From the IMG/VR virus record IMGVR_UViG_2671180984_000014: a stretch of 64,000 bases of DNA; one strand, 5' to 3'. Each line of letters starts with the position of its first letter. Position 1 is the first letter of the stretch. The notes under the pieces are model-generated. The model was not told the DNA's origin. It worked only from the letters and a program-made list of their open reading frames with translations, and did no database searches. Position numbers and translations under genes: made by a program. Below, in pieces: positions 1,794 to 59,454 of this stretch. Source of the DNA: a virus. Lineage: Duplodnaviria; Heunggongvirae; Uroviricota; Caudoviricetes.

Positions 1794-4700
1794 AAGAGCT
1801 GTGCTATGGATCTGTTTGCAGTGGAATTGAAGCCGCGAGTATTGCCTGGGAACCGTTGGGTATGCGTCCGGCGTGGTTTGCTGAAATCGAGCCTTTTCCA
1901 TCGGCCGTTCTTGCGCTCCGCTGGCCCCATGTTGCCAACCTTGGCGACATGAAAAAACTTGCCAAAAAAGTCTTGGCTGGGGAAATCGAATCCCCTGACG
2001 TGCTCGTCGGGGGAACACCATGTTTTACCGCGGGGCATATGGTTCTTTGTAAAAATGGCTATAAACCAATAGAAAATGTTTGCCCTGGTGATTACGTAGT
2101 CAGTCATCTCGGGCGGTTACAACAAGTAAAAAGAGTTGGTTCAAAAATAGCTAATACGGGGTTACTTAATGCCGTTGGGCAGCCTTTAGGTATAAGAACA
2201 ACCAATGACCATCCCTTCCTGGCTGTTCGGTGGAAAGCCCAAAACACCCGGAAAAATGGCACATATTTTAAGAGAGAGTTGTTGTCTGAACCGGAATGGC
2301 GAGCAGCATGTGATATGCCGGGATATCAATGGTGCGCTCTAACTAATTTCAATATTGCATTTCCAGATATTTGTTCTCGGTTCTTGTCTGAAGAACAGGC
2401 TATGTATCTTGCGGGCGCTTATGTTGGCGATGGATATATTAGGAGATGGAGAGGTAAATCTAAGAAGGCGGTTGTTTTTGGCATAAATTGCCAGAAATTG
2501 AGAAAGTTTCATTGCCGCATACCAGAAAACATATTTTCCGTGGCAAGCGAAATCCGAGGGAGCATCAAAGTAACCTTGAATGATACGTGTTATGCCAATT
2601 GGCTTAATGAACATTTTGGCGAGTTAAGCCATGCTAAGCGTATCCCTGCATGGGTGATGTCGCATCCATTGCGTCATGTGTTTTTACAAGGCTATCTTGA
2701 TACTGATGGGACACCAAGTGGTAAAGCGGGATTTAGAATTAATAGTGTTAGTTCTGCGCTTGCTTGGGGCGTTGCGGGGTTGTCACAGACTTGTGGTTAT
2801 GTTTCTTCGGTCAGCTTTATTGAAGTTGAGCCCAAAAAAGTGATCGAGGATCGCGTGGTAAATCAACGGAATTATTATCAGGTAACAATCTGCCCGCAGA
2901 AATTGTCACGTAAATCAAGATTGGCTCATGGAATGCTTTTACGAACAGTCAAAGAGTTTAAATCGGTAGGCCTAGATACTGTATACAACATAGAAGTCGA
3001 AGGTGATCATTCCTATATCCTCAATGGTGCGGTGGTCCATAACTGTCAGGCATTCAGTATCGCGGGATTACGTGGTGGGCTTGATGATGAGCGTGGCGCG
3101 CTAACTTTAAAGTATGTGGAGCTTGCAAATGCAATTGACGACAAACGGGCTGAGTCATTTCTCAAACCAGCCGTTATCGTCTGGGAAAATGTCCCAGGAG
3201 TCTTGTCATCGGCAGATAACGCCTTCGGATGTTTCCTTGCCGGATTGGCTGGAGAAGATGTGCCATTTGAACCAGGTGATCGACCTGAATCAGGAAAAAG
3301 CAACGCGTTCTGGCGGTGGGATGGCAAAACCGGTTGCCATGTTCCAAAGTGGCCGCAGTGTGGTTGTATTTATGGACCGCAGCGAAAAGTGGCCTGGAGA
3401 ATCCTTGATGCCCAATACTTCGGAGTGGCACAACGACGCCGACGCGTGTTTGTTGTCGCAAGTGCTCGAACAGATCTCGATCCCGCAACGGTACTTTTTG
3501 AGTTCGAAGGCGTGCGCCGGAATATTGCGCCGAGCAGAGGCGAGGGGAAGGAAACTACCAGATATACTTCAAACATCGCTATCAGAACTTGCGATGATAC
3601 AAACATAATTGCCATGGCACATGGGCAAGGAGGGGCTGAGATAAAAACCGATAATTCGGCACCAACTTTGACATGTAACCATGAAGCACCAATTGTATTG
3701 CTCGGCGACGGTAGAATGCGCCGTCTTACCCCTGTCGAATGTGAAAGGCTGCAAGGTTTTCCTGATTGGCATACGTTGATCCCTACGGAAAAGCGTAAAA
3801 AAGTTAATTCAGATGAACTGGCATATCTGCACAATCACTATCCAGATTTAAGCGAAGAAGAGGCCGCAATGCTTGCAGCTGACGGACCGCGTTACAAAGC
3901 GATCGGCAATAGTATGGCAATACCAGTAATGCGCTGGATTGGCGATCGGATTACTAAGGCCGTATGTCGGCAGAAAGAAGGAAGTGAAACAAAAGAGCGA
4001 AAAGTTAAACCAGCGGCAGAATTCGAACGGTCCATATTCAAATGGGCTGGTGGAAAATTTGGTGTTCTGGAACAAATCTTTCGCTATTTGCCAGAAGGGA
4101 AGCGCCTGATTGAACCTTTCGTTGGTGGCGGAGCTGTCTTCATGAATGCCGGATACCAGGAAAATCTGCTAAATGATGTGAATGCTGACCTGATTAACTT
4201 TTACAAGACTCTGCAACGCGAGGCGCATTCACTTATCACTCTGGCACATCGTTTCTTCCAGGACTACAACACACAGGAAGGATACCTGGCAGTACGGAAT
4301 GCGTTTAACAAACAAGTCTATGATGATTTACATCGCGCAGCGGCGTTTTTGTTCCTGAACCGACATTGTTTTAACGGATTGACGCGTTACAACCAGGCCG
4401 GTGAGTTCAATGTCGGTTATGGGAAGTATAAAACTCCGTATTTCCCATTACAGGAGATGGAAGCCTTCCTCGGTGCGGAAGGGCGGTCTGAGTTTGTATG
4501 CGGTGATTTTGCAGCGGTGATTGAAGCTGCCGGAGAAGGAGATGTCATCTTTTGCGATCCGCCGTATGAACCGCTTCCAAATACAGAGGGATTCACGAAC
4601 TATTCCGGTCATGACTTTAAGTTTGAAGAGCAAAAACGCCTGGTGTCTCTGTTGACGGATGCTCATCGTCGAGGTGCAAAGGTTCTCATTACTAACAGTG

Positions 4701-4831
4701 GCGCGCCAAACATCAGAGAGCTTTATCATGACAGTGGCTTCAGAGTGGAACCTCTTTTTGCCAGACGTTCTGTGTCTTGTAAGGGGGACACTCGAGGTGT
4801 AGCTCATGACGTTTTGGGTATATTGCTCTAA
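1790..4831 (+). CDS. dmt: bifunctional DNA methyltransferase (C5-cytosine MTase fused to Dam-family N6-adenine MTase), intein-containing precursor
   Basis: 1013-aa uninterrupted frame; C5-MTase motif I (SVCSGIEAA), split motif IV (GGTP / CQAFSIAG), motif VI (VWENVPG), VIII (QRRRRVF), X ([13 protein letters not shown]); C-terminal ~270 aa with FKWAGGK and FCDPPYEP of Dam-class MTases. Confidence 0.85.
2021..3043 (+). mobile_element. intein with LAGLIDADG homing-endonuclease domain, in frame inside C5-MTase motif IV
   Basis: 341 codons starting with Cys (CFTAGHMVL), block B TxxH (RTTNDHPF), two LAGLIDADG-like blocks ([21 protein letters not shown]), terminal VVHN followed by +1 Cys; removal restores [12 protein letters not shown]. 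Confidence 0.8.
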
Positions 4832-4849
4832 TAAATTTATTAGTGTAAT
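4822..4849. promoter_or_regulatory. C1 operator (perfect match) plus overlapping inverted degenerate copy
   Basis: ATTGCTCTAATAAATTT at 4822-4838 overlapping the dmt stop codon; inverted partial copy AAATTTATTAGTGTAAT at 4833-4849. Confidence 0.6.
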
Positions 4850-5012
4850 ATTACCTCAATGAATCGTGATTTATAGAGCGATTTAGCTGTTAGCCGCGAC
4901 AGGCGCGGCGGTAAGCATGGCTGGGCCTAGTCCTCCCAGACAAACCACCGAGTTGCCAGGTTGACCATGCGCCTAAGTGGCAACGCCGAAGTGCGTTACG
5001 AGCGTCCAGTTT

Positions 5013-5038
5013 GCCCATCTTCGGGTGGGCGTTTTTTT
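5013..5038 (+). terminator. rho-independent terminator
   Basis: GC-rich hairpin GCCCATCTTCGGGTGGGC followed by GTTTTTTT. Confidence 0.55.
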
Positions 5039-5220
5039 CAGGGTTTTCGTCATGGTTAGCGACTTTGCGGCGGTTTAGAAACTGACCATTAAAGTAAATG
5101 CAAACGATGATCTGATGATGGTAGCGGCCTAAGAAGCCAGATGCCATGGGGTATGAGTCGTCCCCCGTCAAAAAATCGACCGCAGAGTGTCCCCGTCTGT
5201 GTATTAGGGAACGGGGAGGC

Positions 5221-5300
5221 ACAACAGGTAAGGGCGCTGGTGTGATTAACCAGATGAACGAGAAGGGGCCATCTGTTGGTCAGCGTCCTTTCCTGTTGCG
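5221..5300 (+). repeat. stem-loop module, upstream member of a four-copy family
   Basis: ACAGGTAAGGGCGCTG ... CAGCGTCCTTTCCTGT imperfect inverted repeat followed by TGCGTTTTC; related to modules at 5753, 6113, 6395. Confidence 0.35.
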
Positions 5301-5503
5301 TTTTCTTTTCAGCGTAACAGCGGTGCTTAACAGCACTTTGGGTACAGTTCCACGAATTTACGGGTATATCCCGTCATGCTGAAGGCGCTAATCACGCTGG
5401 AAGCCAGGGTTATGCATCCCCTGTTACCGAATTGCAGCCAGGGCGCGGTGCGCCGAAAAGCATACGGAGGTGGAAGCCCTCGCCGGAGACGTACCCGGCA
5501 AGT

Positions 5504-5578
5504 GATGGTGTAGCTCAGCGGTAGAGCAGTTGGCTGTTAACCAACTGGTCGGTAGTTCGAATCCACCCACCATCGCCA
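5504..5578 (+). tRNA. trnA: tRNA-Asn (anticodon GTT)
   Basis: cloverleaf: acceptor GATGGTG/CACCATC, D-arm GCTC-AGCGGTA-GAGC, anticodon stem GTTGG/CCAAC with loop CTGTTAA, T-loop TTCGAAT, encoded CCA. Confidence 0.7.
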
Positions 5579-5583
5579 CTTTA

Positions 5584-5670
5584 GGGGAGTTAGTCCGTAG
5601 GGGTAGCGGGGTAGACTGTAAATCTACTGTCATTGCGACTCGGGTGGTTCGACTCCATCACTCCCCACCA
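5584..5670 (+). tRNA. tRNA-Tyr-like (anticodon GTA), long variable arm
   Basis: acceptor GGGGAGT/ACTCCCC perfectly paired, anticodon stem GTAGA/TCTAC with loop CTGTAAA, long variable arm, T-loop TTCGACT, encoded CCA; D-arm less canonical. Confidence 0.55.
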
Positions 5671-5674
5671 CATT

Positions 5675-5750
5675 GCCGATTTAGCTCAGTTGGTAGAGCA
5701 GTCGCTTTGTAAGCGAATGGTCAGCGGTTCGATCCCGTTAATCGGCACCA
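5675..5750 (+). tRNA. trnT: tRNA-Thr (anticodon TGT)
   Basis: acceptor GCCGATT/AATCGGC, D-arm GCTC-AGTTGGTA-GAGC, anticodon loop TTTGTAA, T-arm AGCGG-TTCGATC-CCGTT, encoded CCA. Confidence 0.8.
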
Positions 5751-5752
5751 AC

Positions 5753-5830
5753 ATAACAGGTAAGAGCATTCTCCCTTATGGGGCCTGGCTTAAATGCATC
5801 GAGTGCTCTTACCGTTGTGATGAAGTGCAG
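5753..5830 (+). repeat. stem-loop module, copy 1
   Basis: 10-bp inverted repeat GGTAAGAGCA ... TGCTCTTACC followed by GTTGTGATGAAGTGC. Confidence 0.45.
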
Positions 5831-6112
5831 ATCTTAGAAGCAACCAGAAGATAAGCATCTGGCTTCACAACATAAACCGCAGGAACGACCAATAAACGGT
5901 AGTCCGTATGGAGAACACCCCGTTGAGGAAGAGGCCTGGCCGGAACCGTAACCGGCGACTGGTAATGTGTGTAAATGGAGCGAAATATGTGGGCGTTTAA
6001 CGGGATACGGGTTGTAACAGCGATTATTAACGGCGAACTTAAGTATTCACGTTTCGAGACAAATGAACGTGATGGGAAATGTATTGGTGTGCGGTTAGTA
6101 AGAGAATACGCA

Positions 6113-6225
6113 TAACAACTACAACGTTGAGAACACTGGCGTAACGGGGTCATATCCCAATCTACGAATAAATGTTGCGTTGCCGCGTGACAACCAGTGT
6201 TCTCAACATTGTGGTGAATGCACAG
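6113..6225 (+). repeat. stem-loop module, copy 2
   Basis: perfect 14-bp inverted repeat GTTGAGAACACTGG ... CCAGTGTTCTCAAC; loop contains GTAACGGGGTCATATCCCAATCTAC; followed by ATTGTGGTGAATGCAC. Confidence 0.45.
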
Positions 6226-6394
6226 GCTGATGTGCCGCAACTACAGTAGTGCGCGCTTTGCGGGGCTTGCTACAACCCTGTGTCGGAGTTCAGCACCGAC
6301 CATCACAGTTTGATTCTCTGGCATGAGCATAACGCTGAAATAAGTCCAGTCTGGTGCGGTCTGATCACCCGCCGTTAGCTCCACGAAACGGAGC

Positions 6395-6485
6395 ACGTAA
6401 CAGGTAAGAGCATTCTCCTGTAACGGGTTCATATCCCAATCTACAGGTCCACCAAGAATGCTCTTTCCGTTGCGGTGAATGCGGC
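6395..6485 (+). repeat. stem-loop module, copy 3
   Basis: 14-bp inverted repeat GGTAAGAGCATTCT ... AGAATGCTCTTTCC (1 mismatch); loop contains GTAACGGGTTCATATCCCAATCTAC; followed by GTTGCGGTGAATGCGG. Confidence 0.45.
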
Positions 6486-6623
6486 TAAGCGCACGCGGGG
6501 AAATGGTTATATCTGTCCATTATTTCTCCTTGTTTCCACGTCCACGGTGGATAACCAGCCAAAGGACACCGGGAGGAACCCGGCACCGCAGCTTTTTTAT
6601 TCGTTAAATAATGGAGTGAGAGG

Positions 6624-6860
6624 ATGCAGAACAATCCGAACAAATGTCGAACGCTATGGGTGCGGTTATATATTTATGCCGTCCTCTGTTTGATTGTGTC
6701 ACTGGTTCTGTATGTTTGGCTTTTGCCAAATATGATCTCATCTAACAGCACAATACTTGTATTGTTGGGAGTCCTTCTCGCGCTCATTTACCCGGCTTTC
6801 GCAGTAGTCTTTTTTCGTGAAAAAACCAGGAAATTAATTAATGAAAAAAACGTTGATTAG
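6624..6860 (+). CDS. upl: small membrane protein upstream of plp
   Basis: 78-aa ORF with two hydrophobic helices; overlaps plp start; position matches P1 upl. Confidence 0.45.
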   Translation: MQNNPNKCRTLWVRLYIYAVLCLIVSLVLYVWLLPNMISSNSTILVLLGVLLALIYPAFAVVFFREKTRKLINEKNVD

Positions 6861-7668
6861 TGCAGCGATTATTTTGGGTTCTTTATGTCTGACCGGATGC
6901 GATCGGGTAGAGCCAGGTAACGTAGGGATCAAAGTAAATAAGCTGGGGGATGATAAAGGTATCGGTGAAGTAGTTGGCGTTGGTCGCTACTGGACAGGCT
7001 TGAATACTGAAGTTTATATCTTCCCGACCTTTAAGCAAATGAAGACATACGATGAGCCGTTCAGCTTCCAGATGAGCGACGGAACAACCATTGGTTACCA
7101 CATCGGCGTAGCCTACAAGGTTGATCCAGCAAAAGTCACAACGGTATTTCAGACCTATCGCAAAGGTGTAGATGATATTACTGATACCGATCTACGCCAG
7201 AAGGTTGCAGATGCTCTGAACCGATTAGCCAGCAAAATGACCACCGACAAATTTATCGACGGTGGCAAATCTGAATTGCTTGATGCAGCCCTTAAAGACA
7301 TTCAGGAAGAAATGACGCCAATCGGCATTCAGGTGATGAGCCTCTCTTATGTAGGTAAGCCAGAATACCCGCCAACAGTTATTGACAGTATTAACGCCAA
7401 AGTCACGGCAAACCAAAAAACCCTGCAACGCGAGCAAGAGGTCAAACAACGTGAAGCAGAGGCCAACATGCTGCGCGCGGAAGCTGCCGGACAGGCTGAT
7501 GCTATTCGCACAAAAGCCCAGGCCGAAGCTGATGCCATTCGTTTACGTGGTGAAGCTCTGCGCCAGAACCCCGGTGTTATGGACTTGGAAGCGATCAACA
7601 AATGGAACGGTACATTACCGCAGTATATGACCAGTAATACCGCTGTTCCGTTTGTTCCGGTGAAATAA
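6841..7668 (+). CDS. plp: SPFH/band-7 domain lipoprotein
   Basis: signal peptide with lipobox LTGC; prohibitin/HflC-like core and Ala/Glu-rich coiled-coil tail. Confidence 0.7.
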   Translation: MKKTLISAAIILGSLCLTGCDRVEPGNVGIKVNKLGDDKGIGEVVGVGRYWTGLNTEVYIFPTFKQMKTYDEPFSFQMSDGTTIGYHIGVAYKVDPAKVTTVFQTYRKGVDDITDTDLRQKVADALNRLASKMTTDKFIDGGKSELLDAALKDIQEEMTPIGIQVMSLSYVGKPEYPPTVIDSINAKVTANQKTLQREQEVKQREAEANMLRAEAAGQADAIRTKAQAEADAIRLRGEALRQNPGVMDLEAINKWNGTLPQYMTSNTAVPFVPVK

Positions 7669-7695
7669 AAGCGTAAGCAAAATTGGCAGTAATCC

Positions 7696-7771
7696 GGCCC
7701 TTTAGCTCAGTGGTTAGAGCTGGCGACTCATAATCGCACGGTCACCGGTTCAAGTCCGGTAGGGGCCACCA
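7696..7771 (+). tRNA. trnI: tRNA with CAT anticodon, tRNA-Ile2 (lysidine) type rather than tRNA-Met
   Basis: acceptor GGCCCTT/AGGGGCC, anticodon loop CTCATAA, T-arm ACCGG-TTCAAGT-CCGGT, encoded CCA; overall close to enterobacterial ileX as recalled. Confidence 0.75.
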
Positions 7772-8051
7772 TATTTGGTTGTAACACGGCGTCTGGCACA
7801 TGCGTCGTTAGCGGTCTGGTGACGTTAAAGGGGTAACCTTTCCCCTAGCTCAGGCAACAAACCAGGTAGCCGGAATGTGCAAGCCCCGTTCATAGCGTCG
7901 GACTGCGGATTCACCATCCTGGCGATTCGGTGTGACAGCCGGGAAGAGTCCGGCGCATTAATCCTGATTTTCTGGTGATGACTCATATCGTTAGGAGTGA
8001 TTTGAGTATGCCGATTATATCTGACATTCAGCACGCCTGGGTGGAGTGCTA

Positions 8052-9416
8052 ATGTCTGCATCCCCTCTTGAATCCATGCCAAATTCCCTTAGTGCAGAAC
8101 AAGCTGTACTTGGTGGCTTAATGCTTGATAACTGCCGCTGGGATGAAGTTGCAGATCGTATAGTTGCTGATGATTTTTATACCAGTGCTCATCGTGAAAT
8201 TTTCAGTGAGATGGAGAGGTTATTAAGTCATGGCAAACCGATTGATTTGATAACACTTGCTGAAGCACTTGAACAGAACGGTAAATTAGAACGCGCCGGT
8301 GGTTTTGCGTACCTTGCGGAGATGTCAAAGAACACGCCCAGCGCGGCAAATATTTGTGCTTATGCGGATATCGTTCGTGAACGCGCGGTTGTTCGTGAAA
8401 TGATTTCCGTCGCAAATGAAATAGCTGAAGCTGGATATGCGCAGGATGGCAGGGGCAGCAATGAATTGCTGGATATGGCCGAGCGCCGCGTTTTTGAAAT
8501 AGCTGAAAAACGACAAAAGAGCGGTAGTGGTCCAAAAGATATCGCCAGCATTCTCGATGCAACGGTATCTCGCATAGAAGAGTTGTTTCAGCGACCGCAT
8601 GATGGTGTAACGGGGCTTGATACCGGATTTACCGATCTCAATAAGAAGACGGCAGGACTTCAGGCGTCCGATCTCATTATTGTCGCCGCCCGCCCATCGA
8701 TGGGGAAGACTACGTTTGCGATGAATCTCGTCGAAAATGCCGCAGTCCGTAACGATAAGCCCGTATTGGTTTTTAGCCTTGAGATGCCGAGCCACCAACT
8801 GATGATGCGCTCACTGGCTTCTCTTGCACGCGTTGATCAGACTCGTATTCGAACAGGGCAACTTAACGACGAGGATTGGGCGCGGGTTTCTGGCGCAATG
8901 GGGATTCTGTTGGACAAGCAGAATATTTTTATTGATGACTCAAGCGCCCTAACACCTACAGAGCTTCGTTCCCGCGCTCGTCGTGTTTATAAAGAAAATG
9001 GTGGTTTGAGCATGATTATGATCGACTACCTGCAACTTATGCGCGTCCCCGAGCTGCAAGATAACCGAACGCTGGAAATTGCCGAGATTTCTCGCTCACT
9101 GAAGGCTTTGGCGAAGGAATTACAAGTACCGGTGGTGGCATTGTCACAACTTAATCGATCGCTTGAACAGCGTGCGGACAAACGACCGGTAAATTCAGAT
9201 TTACGTGAATCAGGAGCAATTGAGCAGGACGCAGACCTGATCATGTTTCTGTATCGCGACGAAGTTTATCACCCGGATAGCGAAATGAAGGGCATTGCCG
9301 AGGTAATTATCGGAAAGCAACGAAATGGCCCAATTGGCACGGTGAGATTGGCTTTTAACGGCCAATACTCACGGTTTGATAACTATGCTGGTGCTGACTG
9401 GCAAGAGGATTATTAA
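8052..9416 (+). CDS. ban: DnaB-family replicative helicase (Ban)
   Basis: 454 aa from ATG 8052 (GGAG upstream; ORF track starts at GTG 8046); near full-length similarity to E. coli DnaB incl. Walker A ARPSMGKTTFA and C-terminal GKQRNGPIGTVRL. Confidence 0.9.
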   Translation: MSASPLESMPNSLSAEQAVLGGLMLDNCRWDEVADRIVADDFYTSAHREIFSEMERLLSHGKPIDLITLAEALEQNGKLERAGGFAYLAEMSKNTPSAANICAYADIVRERAVVREMISVANEIAEAGYAQDGRGSNELLDMAERRVFEIAEKRQKSGSGPKDIASILDATVSRIEELFQRPHDGVTGLDTGFTDLNKKTAGLQASDLIIVAARPSMGKTTFAMNLVENAAVRNDKPVLVFSLEMPSHQLMMRSLASLARVDQTRIRTGQLNDEDWARVSGAMGILLDKQNIFIDDSSALTPTELRSRARRVYKENGGLSMIMIDYLQLMRVPELQDNRTLEIAEISRSLKALAKELQVPVVALSQLNRSLEQRADKRPVNSDLRESGAIEQDADLIMFLYRDEVYHPDSEMKGIAEVIIGKQRNGPIGTVRLAFNGQYSRFDNYAGADWQEDY

Positions 9417-34921: not shown

Positions 34922-35262
34922 TGTTTTTTAGCTACCGATGTTACATTGAACCTGACCTCTTGCGCCTTGAGGCATTTTCGGTTTATGCTTATCAGGCACC
35001 TCATTAAAACGGGTGCCGGGATTGGCCTCCCGCTTAAGTCTAAGGCGATACAGACGCCGCTCGCGTCTTTTTTTGTATCGGCGTACACGCACACCTCTAC
35101 AATGGTGGGCTGTATGGGGCTACCTTCGGGTAGGCTGGTTACCTTGGACGCCAGTAAGGCCAACTCCGTACAGTCCACCGCCAGCAAGATTGGTCTCTTC
35201 TGCGGTGGTTACATACCAACGTCTAAGGAGGCTGCCAATATGGCTACTATCCCTACCCCAAC

Positions 35263-42102: not shown

Positions 42103-43410
42103 ATGAGCGAATATGTTGAGTTAGCATACGCTGCCGCTACAAGCAGGCTTTGTCTATTTACCGGGACTGGCTTTTCAAAGGCAGTCTCGAACGGCGAAGC
42201 ACCAACGTGGAAAGAACTATTAAAAAAAGTTTGCAGCAAAGTTCACAACGCCAAACAGTTGGAAGACACGTTATTCCCTGATGATAAACCACCAGCACTG
42301 AGTCTTGAAGAAGCCGCACAGATACTATCTTTGAAGCTCAACATTGAAGGCAAGTCGATTTATGATGAAATTGTTGACATCATATCTCCAATACAACTTG
42401 GCGAAGATATATCAAATATAAAGGATTTTTTTCAAAAAAGAACATTTCGTGTCATTACAACGAATTATGACAAGTTAGCTGAATACTTAACTGGAGATGA
42501 GGAGGTTCAGTCTATTACCCCAGGCTTACCTATTCCTAAATATCCCTCCAAAGTTAAAATATATCATGTCCATGGTTCTATTGACTCTCCACAAAACATG
42601 ATTGTTACATCAGAAGACTATTTTAGGTTTATAAACTCCGACACTTATTTCTCTCGAAAACTTAGCACGATGCTGCATGAAAATACAGTTGCGATATTAG
42701 GCTATTCTTTAAGCGACACGAACCTAAAAGCAATTATAAATGATTACAAAATATTCTCGAAAGGTAACGCTCTGTGCTCTAATATATTTTTCATCTCTCG
42801 CAGTGAAGTAAGTCAAGATATGAAGGATTATTATTTTTATTGTTTTGGAATACGAGTAATTGACAACACCGAAATAGACTCTTTCTTTAAGAGATTGAGC
42901 ATTAACATAATGTTAATTGAAGGCGTCATAGCAAGAGCCAGACAAAGTATAAAAAGAGTTTTATCAGGCACTTTCAACTATAAGGATGAATACCTTAGAT
43001 TAGAAGATTCATTCTATCAAATAACCTCCTCGATTATATCTGAGGGTTTCGACTGGAATGACGGACAAGTAGTTGATTTTTTCAAGAGAATAATAAAACA
43101 AAAAAGAGATTTAACAAGAGAGAGTGGTGCTTGGGAGCAATACGAGCAGCTTGCAAAATGGCTTATATATTTCGGCAGCCTTTTAGAAATTGGTGGAACT
43201 AAGTATGAAAATGAATATTTAGACGCCGTTGAATACTCAATGTCCAACATGAGCAAAGAAATGAGATTAGGTTATTCGTGGCATGCTTATAGAGCTTGGG
43301 AAACAAGATGGTCCACAATCATTGCTTCAAATCGATTAATAATAAAAAAACGCATCGAAGAAATTGGCGTACTGGAGGATGCTAATTCTATAGTAAAAGA
43401 TATAGTGTAA
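42103..43410 (+). CDS. SIR2-like domain protein with unknown C-terminal domain (candidate defence/abortive-infection effector)
   Basis: 435 aa; N-terminal ordered motifs LFTGTGFSKA, RVITTNYDKLAE, IYHVHGS characteristic of SIR2/sirtuin NAD-binding fold; AT-rich; GGAG RBS; occupies the P1 res-mod slot. Confidence 0.75.
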   Translation: MSEYVELAYAAATSRLCLFTGTGFSKAVSNGEAPTWKELLKKVCSKVHNAKQLEDTLFPDDKPPALSLEEAAQILSLKLNIEGKSIYDEIVDIISPIQLGEDISNIKDFFQKRTFRVITTNYDKLAEYLTGDEEVQSITPGLPIPKYPSKVKIYHVHGSIDSPQNMIVTSEDYFRFINSDTYFSRKLSTMLHENTVAILGYSLSDTNLKAIINDYKIFSKGNALCSNIFFISRSEVSQDMKDYYFYCFGIRVIDNTEIDSFFKRLSINIMLIEGVIARARQSIKRVLSGTFNYKDEYLRLEDSFYQITSSIISEGFDWNDGQVVDFFKRIIKQKRDLTRESGAWEQYEQLAKWLIYFGSLLEIGGTKYENEYLDAVEYSMSNMSKEMRLGYSWHAYRAWETRWSTIIASNRLIIKKRIEEIGVLEDANSIVKDIV

Positions 43411-55157: not shown

Positions 55158-55458
55158 AGTTACGGCCTCACAATCAGGTTTAACAACCTGCTACCCGCTG
55201 TCAAACAGGTGGCAGGACGTGACAGGGTTGACAGACTGGCGATTGTGAAACCAGCAGGCCGAAGCCTCCCCATCACGCCCCACCATAATTTGGGCGTAAC
55301 GCGGTTTAACGGACACAAAAATACCGCAATATCGGAAATCTGCGGTTGTCCGCACAATCATTCAGGCTGTCAAACCTGGTCGCAGAATTTGCTACGACGG
55401 CGGAACTATAAGCCTGAACGACGATGAGATCAATAGAGCCGTGTTCGATGGTAGGTTA

Positions 55459-57952: not shown

Positions 57953-58149
57953 TAAAAACCCCGTCAGTTGGCGGGGAACTCCACGTTAAATGACCAATTA
58001 TTATGTTAGCTAGCAGTTAAAGCGCCTAGTCATTATCTCTTAAAGAAGTCTTTTTAACTTATCTAAATTAGTGACACCTCCCGTTTTGCTTGCTATGGTA
58101 TGCATTCATAAACCTATTCATTAATCTATTCACAACAGTAATTAAAACT

Positions 58150-59454
58150 ATGGCTACACATGCAACAACAATCCGTAGCTTGCTCAATCAAGGGCCTATG
58201 ACACCAAGACAATTGGTTGAAAAACTCAGTGTTAGCCAACCAACGATATCTAGAGCATTAAGAGAACTTGGTGATGAAATCGTTAGGATCGGAAATGGAA
58301 GATCTATTCAATATGCTTTACGAGACTCTTTTAGAGGATTCGAATCAGTCCCCATTTATCGTATAACTGAAGAGGGGTGTATTTGCGTTCTTGGTACTCT
58401 CATTCCGGTGAGGCCAGAAGGCTATGTTATGGTTGAGGATGGGAAAAATAACAGGCATAGCGATGGGTTACCTTGGTGGTTATTTGATATGCGTCCACAA
58501 GGCTTCCTTGGAAGAGCATATGCATCAGCATATGCTCTTGAACTTAACCTTCCCTCAAATCCAGAGCAATGGTCAGATACTGATGTGATCAAAGCCTTAC
58601 TTAAGCATGGGCATGATGTTGTTGGTAATTTGTTAATTGGAGAGCAAGCGCGCACGCATTTTTTAGAGATGCAGCCTCCTGTTCCTGTTAATCGTGAAAT
58701 TGAATATCCTGTATTAGCTTTAGCCGCTGGTGAAGGTGATGTGCCAGGTTCATCTGCTGGAGGTGAACAACCCAAATTTTGTACTTTCACAGAGCGTGGA
58801 CATGTATTAGTGAAATTCTCTGCGCCTAACGACACCCCTATAAGTGAGCGCTGGAGAGATCTCTTGTTTGCTGAACATCTCGCATTAAAAGTTCTGGGGG
58901 TAGAAACAGAAGTTTTTGATTATAACGGTCAGAGATTCTTGGAAATTCCCCGATTTGATCGTGTTGGTCAACTCGGTCGGGTAGGTGTATTCTCACTTCG
59001 TGCACTTGATGCAGAATTTGTTGGTAATGCAAGAGCAACATGGCCCTTGCTGGTTAAAGAGTTGGTAAAAAATAAGTGCGTCCATCCTGATGCGATTATT
59101 ATAGCAACAAGGCTATGGTCTTTTGGTGTGCTAATAGGCAATACCGATATGCATAATGGCAACCTATCGTTTATTAGTAGCCACGGACGCCCATATCATA
59201 TTGCTCCAGCCTATGACATGTTACCTATGGGTTTTGCCCCACGCTCTGGGGGAGCAATGTCTAATGAGCTTAGAAAAACAGCACTACCAGACTTTGTAAG
59301 TCGAAAAATATGGGATGAATCTCTTGAATTAGCTGAAAAATTTTATGCATTGGCCTGTGAGGCCGACAAATTCTCAGCTAACTTTACTCCATGTTTAGAA
59401 GCACTACGCATCCACCTAGATGATTGTAAAATACGCATAGCCCGCCTGGCATAA
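58150..59454 (+). CDS. HipA-family Ser/Thr kinase with fused N-terminal HTH (YjjJ-like architecture)
   Basis: 434 aa from ATG 58150; HTH (MTPRQLVEKLSVSQPTISRALREL); HipA motifs SSAGGEQPKF, LIGNTDMHNGNLSF, APAYDMLP; AT-rich relative to flanks. Confidence 0.7.
   Translation: MATHATTIRSLLNQGPMTPRQLVEKLSVSQPTISRALRELGDEIVRIGNGRSIQYALRDSFRGFESVPIYRITEEGCICVLGTLIPVRPEGYVMVEDGKNNRHSDGLPWWLFDMRPQGFLGRAYASAYALELNLPSNPEQWSDTDVIKALLKHGHDVVGNLLIGEQARTHFLEMQPPVPVNREIEYPVLALAAGEGDVPGSSAGGEQPKFCTFTERGHVLVKFSAPNDTPISERWRDLLFAEHLALKVLGVETEVFDYNGQRFLEIPRFDRVGQLGRVGVFSLRALDAEFVGNARATWPLLVKELVKNKCVHPDAIIIATRLWSFGVLIGNTDMHNGNLSFISSHGRPYHIAPAYDMLPMGFAPRSGGAMSNELRKTALPDFVSRKIWDESLELAEKFYALACEADKFSANFTPCLEALRIHLDDCKIRIARLA

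Follow-up and report, generated by a model that had tools for sequence, protein, structure and literature searches.

A phage-type tRNA-Tyr gene in the tRNA module of a P1-like phage-plasmid and its possible role in lytic growth

We analysed a DNA stretch of 64,000 nucleotides (nt) from a virus of the Caudoviricetes, IMG/VR record IMGVR_UViG_2671180984_000014 (hereafter the window, meaning this whole stretch), and in particular the tRNA module at its positions 5504 to 7771. With middling confidence, we read this module as part of a P1-like phage-plasmid that carries a functional tRNA-Tyr gene of phage type, gained by mosaic recombination, which would supply tRNA-Tyr in lytic growth and buffer its depletion by host defences of the Septu and Retron-Eco7 type. 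The gene is no spare derived from the host, but the same kind of tRNA-Tyr that T5- and T6-type virulent phages use against Retron-Eco7 and Septu, here placed in the lytic operon of a temperate phage-plasmid.

Searching the whole window, ARAGORN called exactly four tRNA genes, all on the plus strand, and all four lay above the gathering score of the Rfam tRNA model (RF00005, 29 bits):

5504-5578, plus strand: tRNA-Asn(GUU) (ARAGORN; Rfam, 69.9 bits)
5584-5670, plus strand: class-II tRNA-Tyr(GUA), whose variable arm is long and whose CCA is encoded (ARAGORN; Rfam, 41.9 bits)
5675-5750, plus strand: tRNA-Thr(UGU) (ARAGORN; Rfam, 67.8 bits)
7696-7771, plus strand: tRNA-Ile2(CAU), labelled Met(cat) by ARAGORN (ARAGORN; Rfam, 64.7 bits)

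The two programs agree on the set of Asn, Tyr, Thr and Ile-CAU genes that the original prediction had read from the letters alone, at the same coordinates. The details it had given for the Tyr gene hold as well, namely the length of 87 nt, the perfect 7-bp acceptor stem, the CTGTAAA loop, the long variable arm, and the position 5 nt 3' of tRNA-Asn and 4 nt 5' of tRNA-Thr; ARAGORN called this gene with a GUA anticodon, and its Rfam E-value in the whole-window search was 1.7e-5. It had also been proposed that the gene is extra relative to P1, and this proved right on comparison with NC_005856, in which trnA(Asn) and trnT(Thr) are separated by a gap of 2 nt with no Tyr gene between them, and which is without a Tyr gene altogether. 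The gene with the CAT anticodon (7696-7771) is 100% identical to P1 trnI, annotated as tRNA-ile2 in NC_005856, and 89% identical to E. coli ileY, a tRNA-Ile(CAU) gene, so that naming it Ile-CAU was correct; judged by this homology to Ile2 genes, it appears to be a tRNA-Ile2 gene rather than a Met or fMet gene and is predicted to read AUA through lysidine (TilS). Of the two outcomes that the original prediction had named as refuting it, neither came about, since P1 lacks the gene and RefSeq, taken as a proxy for tRNAscan-SE, lists it as tRNA-Tyr. As an object the four-tRNA set is not new, being already annotated in Punavirus vB_EcoM-Ro157c2YLVW (NC_050153) and in RefSeq E. coli genomes.

The tRNA-Tyr gene has the make-up of a complete tRNA. 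Its acceptor stem (GGGGAGU/ACUCCCC) is a perfect helix of 7 bp; ARAGORN, Infernal and the pair counts of the family give it a 5-bp anticodon stem, a 5-bp T stem and a T loop of the UUCGA type; its anticodon loop CUGUAAA (7 nt, with U33 and A37) is the same as that of E. coli tyrU; and its variable region of 15 nt contains a covarying 3-bp stem. The discriminator base is A73, and the 1-72 pair is G-C in all 15 distinct members of the family. The long variable arm, A73 and G1-C72 are identity elements of bacterial tyrosyl-tRNA synthetase (TyrRS). By these features the gene fits a bacterial class-II tRNA-Tyr(GUA), and charging by TyrRS is predicted.

The connector between the acceptor and D stems measures 4 nt (UAGU, 5591-5594) against the canonical 2 nt (positions 8 and 9), and this longer connector is the reason why the Rfam score of the Tyr gene falls below those of the other three. 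In the Infernal alignment two inserted nucleotides, gu, follow U8-A9, and the D arm is drawn as CCGU/GCGG with the loop AGGGGUA, which contains the GG. Throughout the phage tRNA-Tyr clade, across unrelated phage groups, the connector is 4-5 nt long (UA followed by NN or NNN), and a shorter D loop offsets it, leaving the total length unchanged; the other viral tRNA-Tyr genes in the sample (n = 55) have a connector of 2 nt. No mention of an expanded tRNA-Tyr connector was found in the literature examined. The expanded connector is an atypical architecture and gives no ground for denying the gene its tRNA identity. Three other foldings were considered and dropped. The D arm drawn by ARAGORN, in which a connector of 2 nt leads to only two D-stem pairs and a bulge of 3 nt, gave way to the CCGU/GCGG stem behind a connector of 4 nt, the form that Infernal prefers and that covaries. 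A longer D stem that would draw in connector base 11 was checked by eye; it pairs only in some members (U-A in chee24, PNJ1902 and KEN16) and is mismatched in Sf22, LL12, KpV477, POP18, fjerdesal, PG7 and Stitch. A tRNA-Sec-like acceptor stem of 8 or 9 bp was ruled out by the sequence.

Covariation was used as evidence of structure because the single-sequence fold proved uninformative: the minimum free energy fold is cloverleaf-like, with z = -0.67 against shuffles, which speaks neither way. For the covariance model, here called R1, we took 13 sequences of the family, namely the window gene and 12 relatives. When 16 sequences were realigned to R1, 99.4% of the cells fell in standard pairs, although fitting to the model structure favours that structure somewhat, and both-side changes were seen in 17 of the 24 pairs, spread over all five helices. 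None of 500 shuffled controls reached any of the observed covariation measures, and sliding the 3' partner by 1-3 columns lowered pairing to 43-56%. The D stem itself covaries in the alignment (CCG/CGG, CUG/CAG and UCG/CGA), with the further variants CGG/CCG and CCC/GGG in additional IMG/VR contigs. The window gene scores 107.8 bits against R1, a match by construction since the gene is itself in the model.

Relatives of this tRNA-Tyr were found in 1,530 phage records from many genera, including T-even-like, rV5-like, T5-like, FelixO1-like and other phages, which are largely virulent. Identity to the window gene is 93% in Vequintavirus, 92% in Tequatrovirus and Karamvirus, about 91% in Mosigvirus, 86% in Jiaodavirus, 79% in Enterococcus Herelleviridae, 78-80% in T5-like phages and 78% in FelixO1-like phages; for Tequatrovirus Sf22 and Vequintavirus LL12 it comes to 92-93%, and for E. 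coli tyrU to 63%. With so low an identity to tyrU the gene was not copied from the host; it is a phage-type allele, and its family appears to have passed horizontally between many unrelated phage groups.

The gene is widespread on plasmids of E. coli. RefSeq, whose Prokaryotic Genome Annotation Pipeline uses tRNAscan-SE, annotates the tRNA-Tyr gene in 270 of 5,426 complete E. coli genomes (5%), and 273 of the 275 tRNA-Tyr places in these genomes sit on plasmids. The closest relative of the module, vB_EcoM-Ro157c2YLVW, is 99.5% identical across 5300-8000 and has the same four tRNAs annotated. The block Asn-Tyr-Thr is present in about 237 of 715 matching PLSDB plasmids. A P1-type leader followed by Asn and Tyr occurs in 101 complete E. 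coli genomes; the remaining 169 or so should, by subtraction, mostly hold a second phage-plasmid family of 106-113 kb, exemplified by pGMI17-003_2, in which Asn-Tyr-Thr is followed by Ser. Our literature search found no paper on tRNA-Tyr variation in P1-like elements and nothing relevant on Ro157c2YLVW.

The genes on either side of tRNA-Tyr point to a composite origin of the cassette. The window tRNA-Asn is 99% identical to that of pGMI17-003_2 and 95% to that of the N4-like phage 3HA13, but 88% to P1 trnA and 59% to E. coli asnT; the window tRNA-Thr is 92% identical to its counterpart in pGMI17-003_2, 83% to P1 trnT and 78% to E. coli thrU. The differences of both from P1 include compensatory changes in the anticodon stems. 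A simple insertion of Tyr between the P1 Asn and Thr genes was rejected, as the flanking genes are themselves different alleles, and a single swap of the whole cassette is too simple as well, as plasmid NZ_CP027309 joins a Tyr gene identical to that of the window to a P1-type Thr allele, with a chimeric tRNA in the first slot. The three-slot cassette is common to a virulent N4-like podovirus and to temperate phage-plasmids, and the module, judged from these alleles, is a mosaic whose slots were filled one at a time from a tRNA pool to which virulent phages also belong.

Several observations on related cassettes may be added here. In the chimeric tRNA of NZ_CP027309.1 (2746-2822 of the compared stretch), the acceptor stem and T arm are those of the window tRNA-Asn, but the anticodon arm is of the Arg(UCU) type and the D loop is altered (…GUAGGAUA…), and RefSeq calls the gene tRNA-Arg; it looks like a case of tRNA remoulding through recombination between tRNA genes. 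After its tRNA-Ile, at about the position of ban, the same plasmid has a gene for a 'Thoeris anti-defense Tad2 family protein' (5491-5514 onward in the compared stretch), and the presence of this gene beside the tRNA module fits a locus that may collect counter-defence functions. In D6 (4488-4574 of the compared stretch), in the 109-kb plasmid family (2264-2350) and in NZ_CP027309 (3430-3516), Thr is followed at a distance of 300-500 nt by a tRNA of 87 nt with the Ser anticodon UGA, which the window lacks; it is annotated as tRNA-Ser or tRNA-OTHER, with a record note that tRNAscan-SE made no amino-acid call. A remnant of such a tRNA-Ser(UGA) gene, as in D6 and pGMI17-003_2, was sought at 5751-6620 of the window, and neither ARAGORN nor Rfam gave one; that region is homologous to P1 plp/upl.

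The module sits, as in P1, between dmt and ban, within the ban operon controlled by the repressor C1, the main features of which are as follows:

4822-4849, plus strand: bipartite C1 operator Oban (formerly Op72), which overlaps the promoters P1ban and P2ban at the head of the ban operon (by identity to P1)
5012-5031, plus strand: GC hairpin resembling a terminator, with T7 after it, which closes the 'dicF-like region' and is conserved in P1 (terminator scan)
5751-6620, no strand assigned: spacer that separates the tRNA triplet from the genes after it, largely homologous to P1 plp/upl at 96-98% identity (blastn)
6841-7668, plus strand: SPFH/Band-7 lipoprotein gene (Pfam Band_7, E = 9.7e-31; lipoprotein/SPFH in RefSeq)
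8046-9416, plus strand: ban, the distal gene of the operon, for a DnaB-like replicative helicase (open reading frame; homologue annotated in NC_050153 and P1)

Over positions 4780-5510, a length of 730 bp in which the C1 operator lies, the window matches P1 at 99% identity. The operator itself, ATTGCTCTAATAAATTT ATTAGTGTAAT, does not differ from the features annotated in NC_005856, and its predicted function is taken over from that annotation. Expression of the tRNAs in lytic growth is expected since they lie downstream of a C1-repressed ban promoter and operator identical to those of P1. Once repression by C1 is lifted, the operon would be transcribed and the transcript would yield four mature tRNAs. 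Host TyrRS would charge the tRNA-Tyr by way of G1-C72, A73, the GUA anticodon and the long variable arm. The added tRNA-Tyr would then refill the pool in lytic growth, and translation of phage genes could go on although Septu or Retron-Eco7 (PtuAB) depletes the tRNA-Tyr of the host. Most likely, then, the gene serves to top up tRNA-Tyr during lytic growth, possibly against host defences that deplete tRNAs.

This proposal leans on what has been reported for other members of the family. Retron-Eco7 depletes the tRNA-Tyr of the host through its effector PtuAB, and the tRNA-Tyr of T5-like phages rescues the phage from it, provided that the anticodon is right and expression is high (PMC11555353). 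[quoted passage not shown] According to the same work, T5 tRNA-Tyr resists cleavage by Retron-Eco7 owing to its distinctive variable loop (PMC13096335). Relief of Septu or Retron-Eco7 immunity is known from papers for T5-like phages, KpP_HS106 and T6 (PMC11555353, PMC13096335). The variable stem-loop of the window tRNA-Tyr, GUC-AUUGC-GAC, is the same as in T5-like chee24 and in Tequatrovirus Sf22, and by sequence and structure the gene belongs to the T5/T6-type family for which activity against Septu and Retron-Eco7 is reported.

Several points weigh against this proposal. T5 and T6 are represented in our comparison by the same-genus members chee24 and Sf22. The tRNA genes are separated from Pban by the terminator-like hairpin (5012-5031), and a scan of 4780-8100 gave no consensus sigma-70 promoter, although it also missed the annotated Pban; expression of the tRNAs is uncertain on this account, for the hairpin implies either read-through or a promoter that the scan does not recognise. 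The escape of T5 is credited to a very strong promoter (PMC11555353), so that the dose in the present element may be too low. Moreover, Septu cleaves T6-type tRNA-Tyr as well as that of the host (PMC13096335), so that protection from Septu would rest on dose alone, and in vitro tRNA-Tyr was left uncut by purified PtuAB (PMC12819146). Nothing points to an evasion of anticodon nucleases either, as the anticodon loop is the same as that of the host. Finally, a rough subtraction places the Tyr gene in only about a sixth of the P1-like plasmids of complete E. coli genomes, and the gene is therefore dispensable.

The main alternative is the classical matching of tRNA supply to codon demand, by which all four tRNAs would meet codons or amino acids that phage genes use above the level of the host, speeding late protein synthesis or covering for a loss of host tRNAs, with no link to defence; we regard it as possible, though on balance somewhat unlikely. 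Codon use was counted in the open reading frames (ORFs) of the window, five of which are AT-rich (GC below 0.43), and in a 50-kb sample of E. coli K-12 scored by the same ORF method, with these values per 1000:

AUA: all window ORFs 12.1; non-AT-rich ORFs 10.6; E. coli K-12 3.9
ACA: all window ORFs 12.6; non-AT-rich ORFs 12.1; E. coli K-12 5.6
Asn: all window ORFs 45.3; non-AT-rich ORFs 45.2; E. coli K-12 35.7
Tyr: all window ORFs 30.4; non-AT-rich ORFs 29.8; E. coli K-12 26.4

All four exceed the E. coli values, the operon is switched on in lytic growth, and the Ile2 gene is host-like (89%), which are all points in favour of supply matching. The fit is good for Thr and Ile, with AUA enriched 3.1-fold and ACA 2.25-fold over E. 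coli, and poor for Tyr, which is enriched only 1.15-fold. E. coli has three tRNA-Tyr genes, tyrT, tyrV and tyrU, so that its tRNA-Tyr is not rare, although only tyrU was compared with the window gene. P1 and most P1-like plasmids do without a Tyr gene despite their similar genomes, and the Tyr gene is a phage-type allele (63% to the host) rather than a host copy. More plausibly, the division runs within the set, with Thr(UGU) and Ile2(CAU) serving the classical decoding of ACA and AUA, codons that are 2-3 times commoner in the phage than in E. coli.

The same counts bear on the suggestion, made in the original prediction, that the tRNA set was acquired for the expression of AT-rich accessory genes such as the SIR2 gene and the HipA-like gene, which we now consider very unlikely. 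Part of its basis stands. An ORF with a SIR2_2 domain (42103-43410) and one with HipA_C and helix-turn-helix domains (58090-59454) are both among the AT-rich ORFs, and these ORFs do use AUA (31.4 per 1000), ACA (18.9), UAU (29.1) and Tyr (37.7) more. The link from this bias to the tRNA set does not stand. The five AT-rich ORFs hold 6.9% of the codons of the window and supply just 7-18% of the demand concerned (Asn 7%, Tyr 9%, ACA 10%, AUA 18%), Tyr is barely enriched, and the demand for AUA and ACA comes from ordinary phage genes, because the non-AT-rich ORFs are already enriched; the comparison of cargo with core genes, which had been proposed as a check, thus went against the suggestion. Distribution largely refutes it, too: the SIR2 gene is present in 59 PLSDB plasmids (7 of them at at least 99%) against about 237 for the Asn-Tyr-Thr cassette, and the same tRNA-Tyr occurs in those 1,530 phage records of largely virulent genera without such cargo. 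P1, which was not checked for this cargo, itself has Asn, Thr and Ile tRNA genes. In addition, the tRNAs lie in a C1-repressed lytic operon, whereas defence cargo would, going by P1 biology, be expected to be active in the lysogen.

Equally improbable, in our judgement, is that the tRNAs act as decoys or replacements against toxins that cut anticodons, with Asn and Tyr as a matched pair. Colicin E5 cuts the queuosine tRNAs Tyr, His, Asn and Asp. The Asn and Tyr genes do adjoin, neighbouring genes of P1 are annotated by homology as 'tellurite or colicin resistance', and in the case of tRNA-Lys, phage versions resistant to PrrC or PARIS have been documented (PMC11555353; PMC11464382). However, the loops of Asn (CUGUUAA), Tyr (CUGUAAA) and Ile (CUCAUAA) are the same as those of the host and only Thr differs, with U32 for C32, so that an enzyme reading the anticodon loop should cut the window tRNAs Asn, Tyr and Ile too; the tci genes, moreover, are absent from the window, with the SPFH gene in their place. 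That PARIS also targets tRNA-Asn or tRNA-Thr was considered and dropped, since a text search of PMC11464382 gave only tRNA-Lys.

That the Tyr gene is a non-functional passenger, a decaying pseudogene or recombination scar carried along with the cassette, is scarcely credible: its Rfam score is the lowest of the four, its connector is non-canonical, its fold is no better than shuffles, some GenBank records label homologues 'tRNA-Pseudo-GTA' or 'tRNA-OTHER', and ARAGORN missed the PG7 and KEN16 homologues, but the near-complete pairing and the compensatory changes in five helices among 16 members from unrelated phages reject this explanation at the level of the family, all helices, the T loop, the anticodon loop, A73 and CCA are intact, and family members work in vivo, where a change of anticodon abolishes rescue (PMC11555353). 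The mislabelled and missed homologues show that the odd connector confuses annotation tools.

To return to the supply of tRNA-Tyr against depleting defences, if the gene acts in the same way as its relatives, tRNA-based counter-defence would reach widespread phage-plasmids of E. coli, and the tRNA content of P1-like elements, with Asn or Arg in the first slot and Ser, Tyr or no gene in the middle one, would become a readable marker of the host defences they have met. A wider scenario, which we put forward only as a doubtful one, is that P1-like and other enterobacterial phage-plasmids keep an exchangeable three-slot cassette (Asn or Arg, then none, Ser or Tyr, then Thr) drawn from a pool shared with N4-like, T-even-like and T5-like phages, that the Tyr version is selected for lytic growth in hosts with Septu or Retron-Eco7, and that the connector of 4-5 nt is an adaptation changing how a nuclease or host surveillance views the tRNA. 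The interest of the case lies in its context, in which a tRNA-Tyr of counter-defence type with a conserved non-canonical connector is found in a mosaic cassette of a common E. coli phage-plasmid. As a caution, tRNA sets of phages should not be taken as codon-usage helpers of cargo genes.

The neighbourhood of the module offers some further observations. The spacer holds three related long hairpin units (5751-5827, 6110-6225 and 6395-6482), which start with AACAGGTAAGAGC… or CAACGTTGAGAAC… and end in …GTTGYGRTGAAKG, two of them with the T-loop-like apex GGGKTCATATCCC; a similar unit lies 5' of tRNA-Asn at about 5224-5305. The units overlap the region annotated as plp/upl on the minus strand in P1, and they may serve as signals for RNA processing or mark the boundaries at which tRNA cassettes recombine. 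Within the region homologous to P1 plp, the window has a 157-bp insert relative to P1 (5961-6117), which would disrupt or alter the plp frame of P1. At 6471-6590, on the plus strand, there is a partial match to the Rfam small RNA (sRNA) STnc100 (38 bits, below the gathering score of 47; model positions 31-147 of 206), directly 5' of a small membrane ORF and the SPFH gene, the two of which (6620-7668) occupy the place of tciA-tciB-tciC in P1. SPFH genes of about 86% identity also occur in Shiga toxin-converting phages, P88 and phiP27. Elsewhere in the window there are two separate C4 antisense RNA genes, at 34996-35185 on the plus strand (75.9 bits) and at 55205-55411 on the minus strand (68.4 bits); one locus is preceded by an isrK-like sRNA (34996-35073) and the other has an a1/b1 target element (55359-55411), which makes two immunity-type antisense loci on one element.

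Set beside known systems, the module resembles that of P1 (NC_005856) in its locus between dmt and ban, its 99% identical leader and its identical trnI, and differs from it in having the Tyr gene, in its Asn and Thr alleles (88% and 83% to those of P1), and in having the small membrane ORF and SPFH gene where P1 has tciABC. The cassette Asn-Ser(UGA)-Thr of the N4-like (Enquatrovirus) phage vB_EcoP_3HA13 (1501-1750 of the compared stretch) shares the order, a class-II gene in the middle, the spacers of 5 nt and 4 nt, and an Asn gene of 95% identity, but its middle gene is Ser(UGA) instead of Tyr(GUA), and 3HA13 is a virulent podovirus. With E. coli tyrU, the window tRNA-Tyr has in common the GUA anticodon, the loop CUGUAAA, G1-C72, A73, the class-II architecture and the T-loop motif, whereas overall identity is 63%, the host has a 2-nt connector and a 9-nt D loop against the 4 nt and 7 nt of the phage type, with the same total, and the variable loop of 5 nt (AUUGC) in the phage type is shorter in the host.

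The tRNA-Tyr of Tequatrovirus Sf22 is 92% identical to the window gene, has C48, the reported Septu cut site, at the same place in the variable stem, and likewise stands beside Thr(UGU), Ile(CAU) and Asn tRNAs, though in the order Thr-Ile-Tyr-Asn there against Asn-Tyr-Thr and, further on, Ile in the window. Protection in T6 needed SegB amplification (PMC13096335), and neither SegB nor amplification was seen in the window. The tRNA-Tyr of T5-like (Tequintavirus) phages falls in the same covariance family (chee24 scores 102 bits against R1, at 78% identity), and agrees with the window gene in the UA+NN connector of 4 nt, in the D arm and in the entire variable stem-loop, while its acceptor and anticodon stems differ through compensatory changes. 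The T5 copy lies in a large tRNA-rich region with a reportedly very strong promoter (PMC11555353), whereas the window gene is one of three in a cassette placed in the C1-controlled operon of a temperate phage-plasmid.

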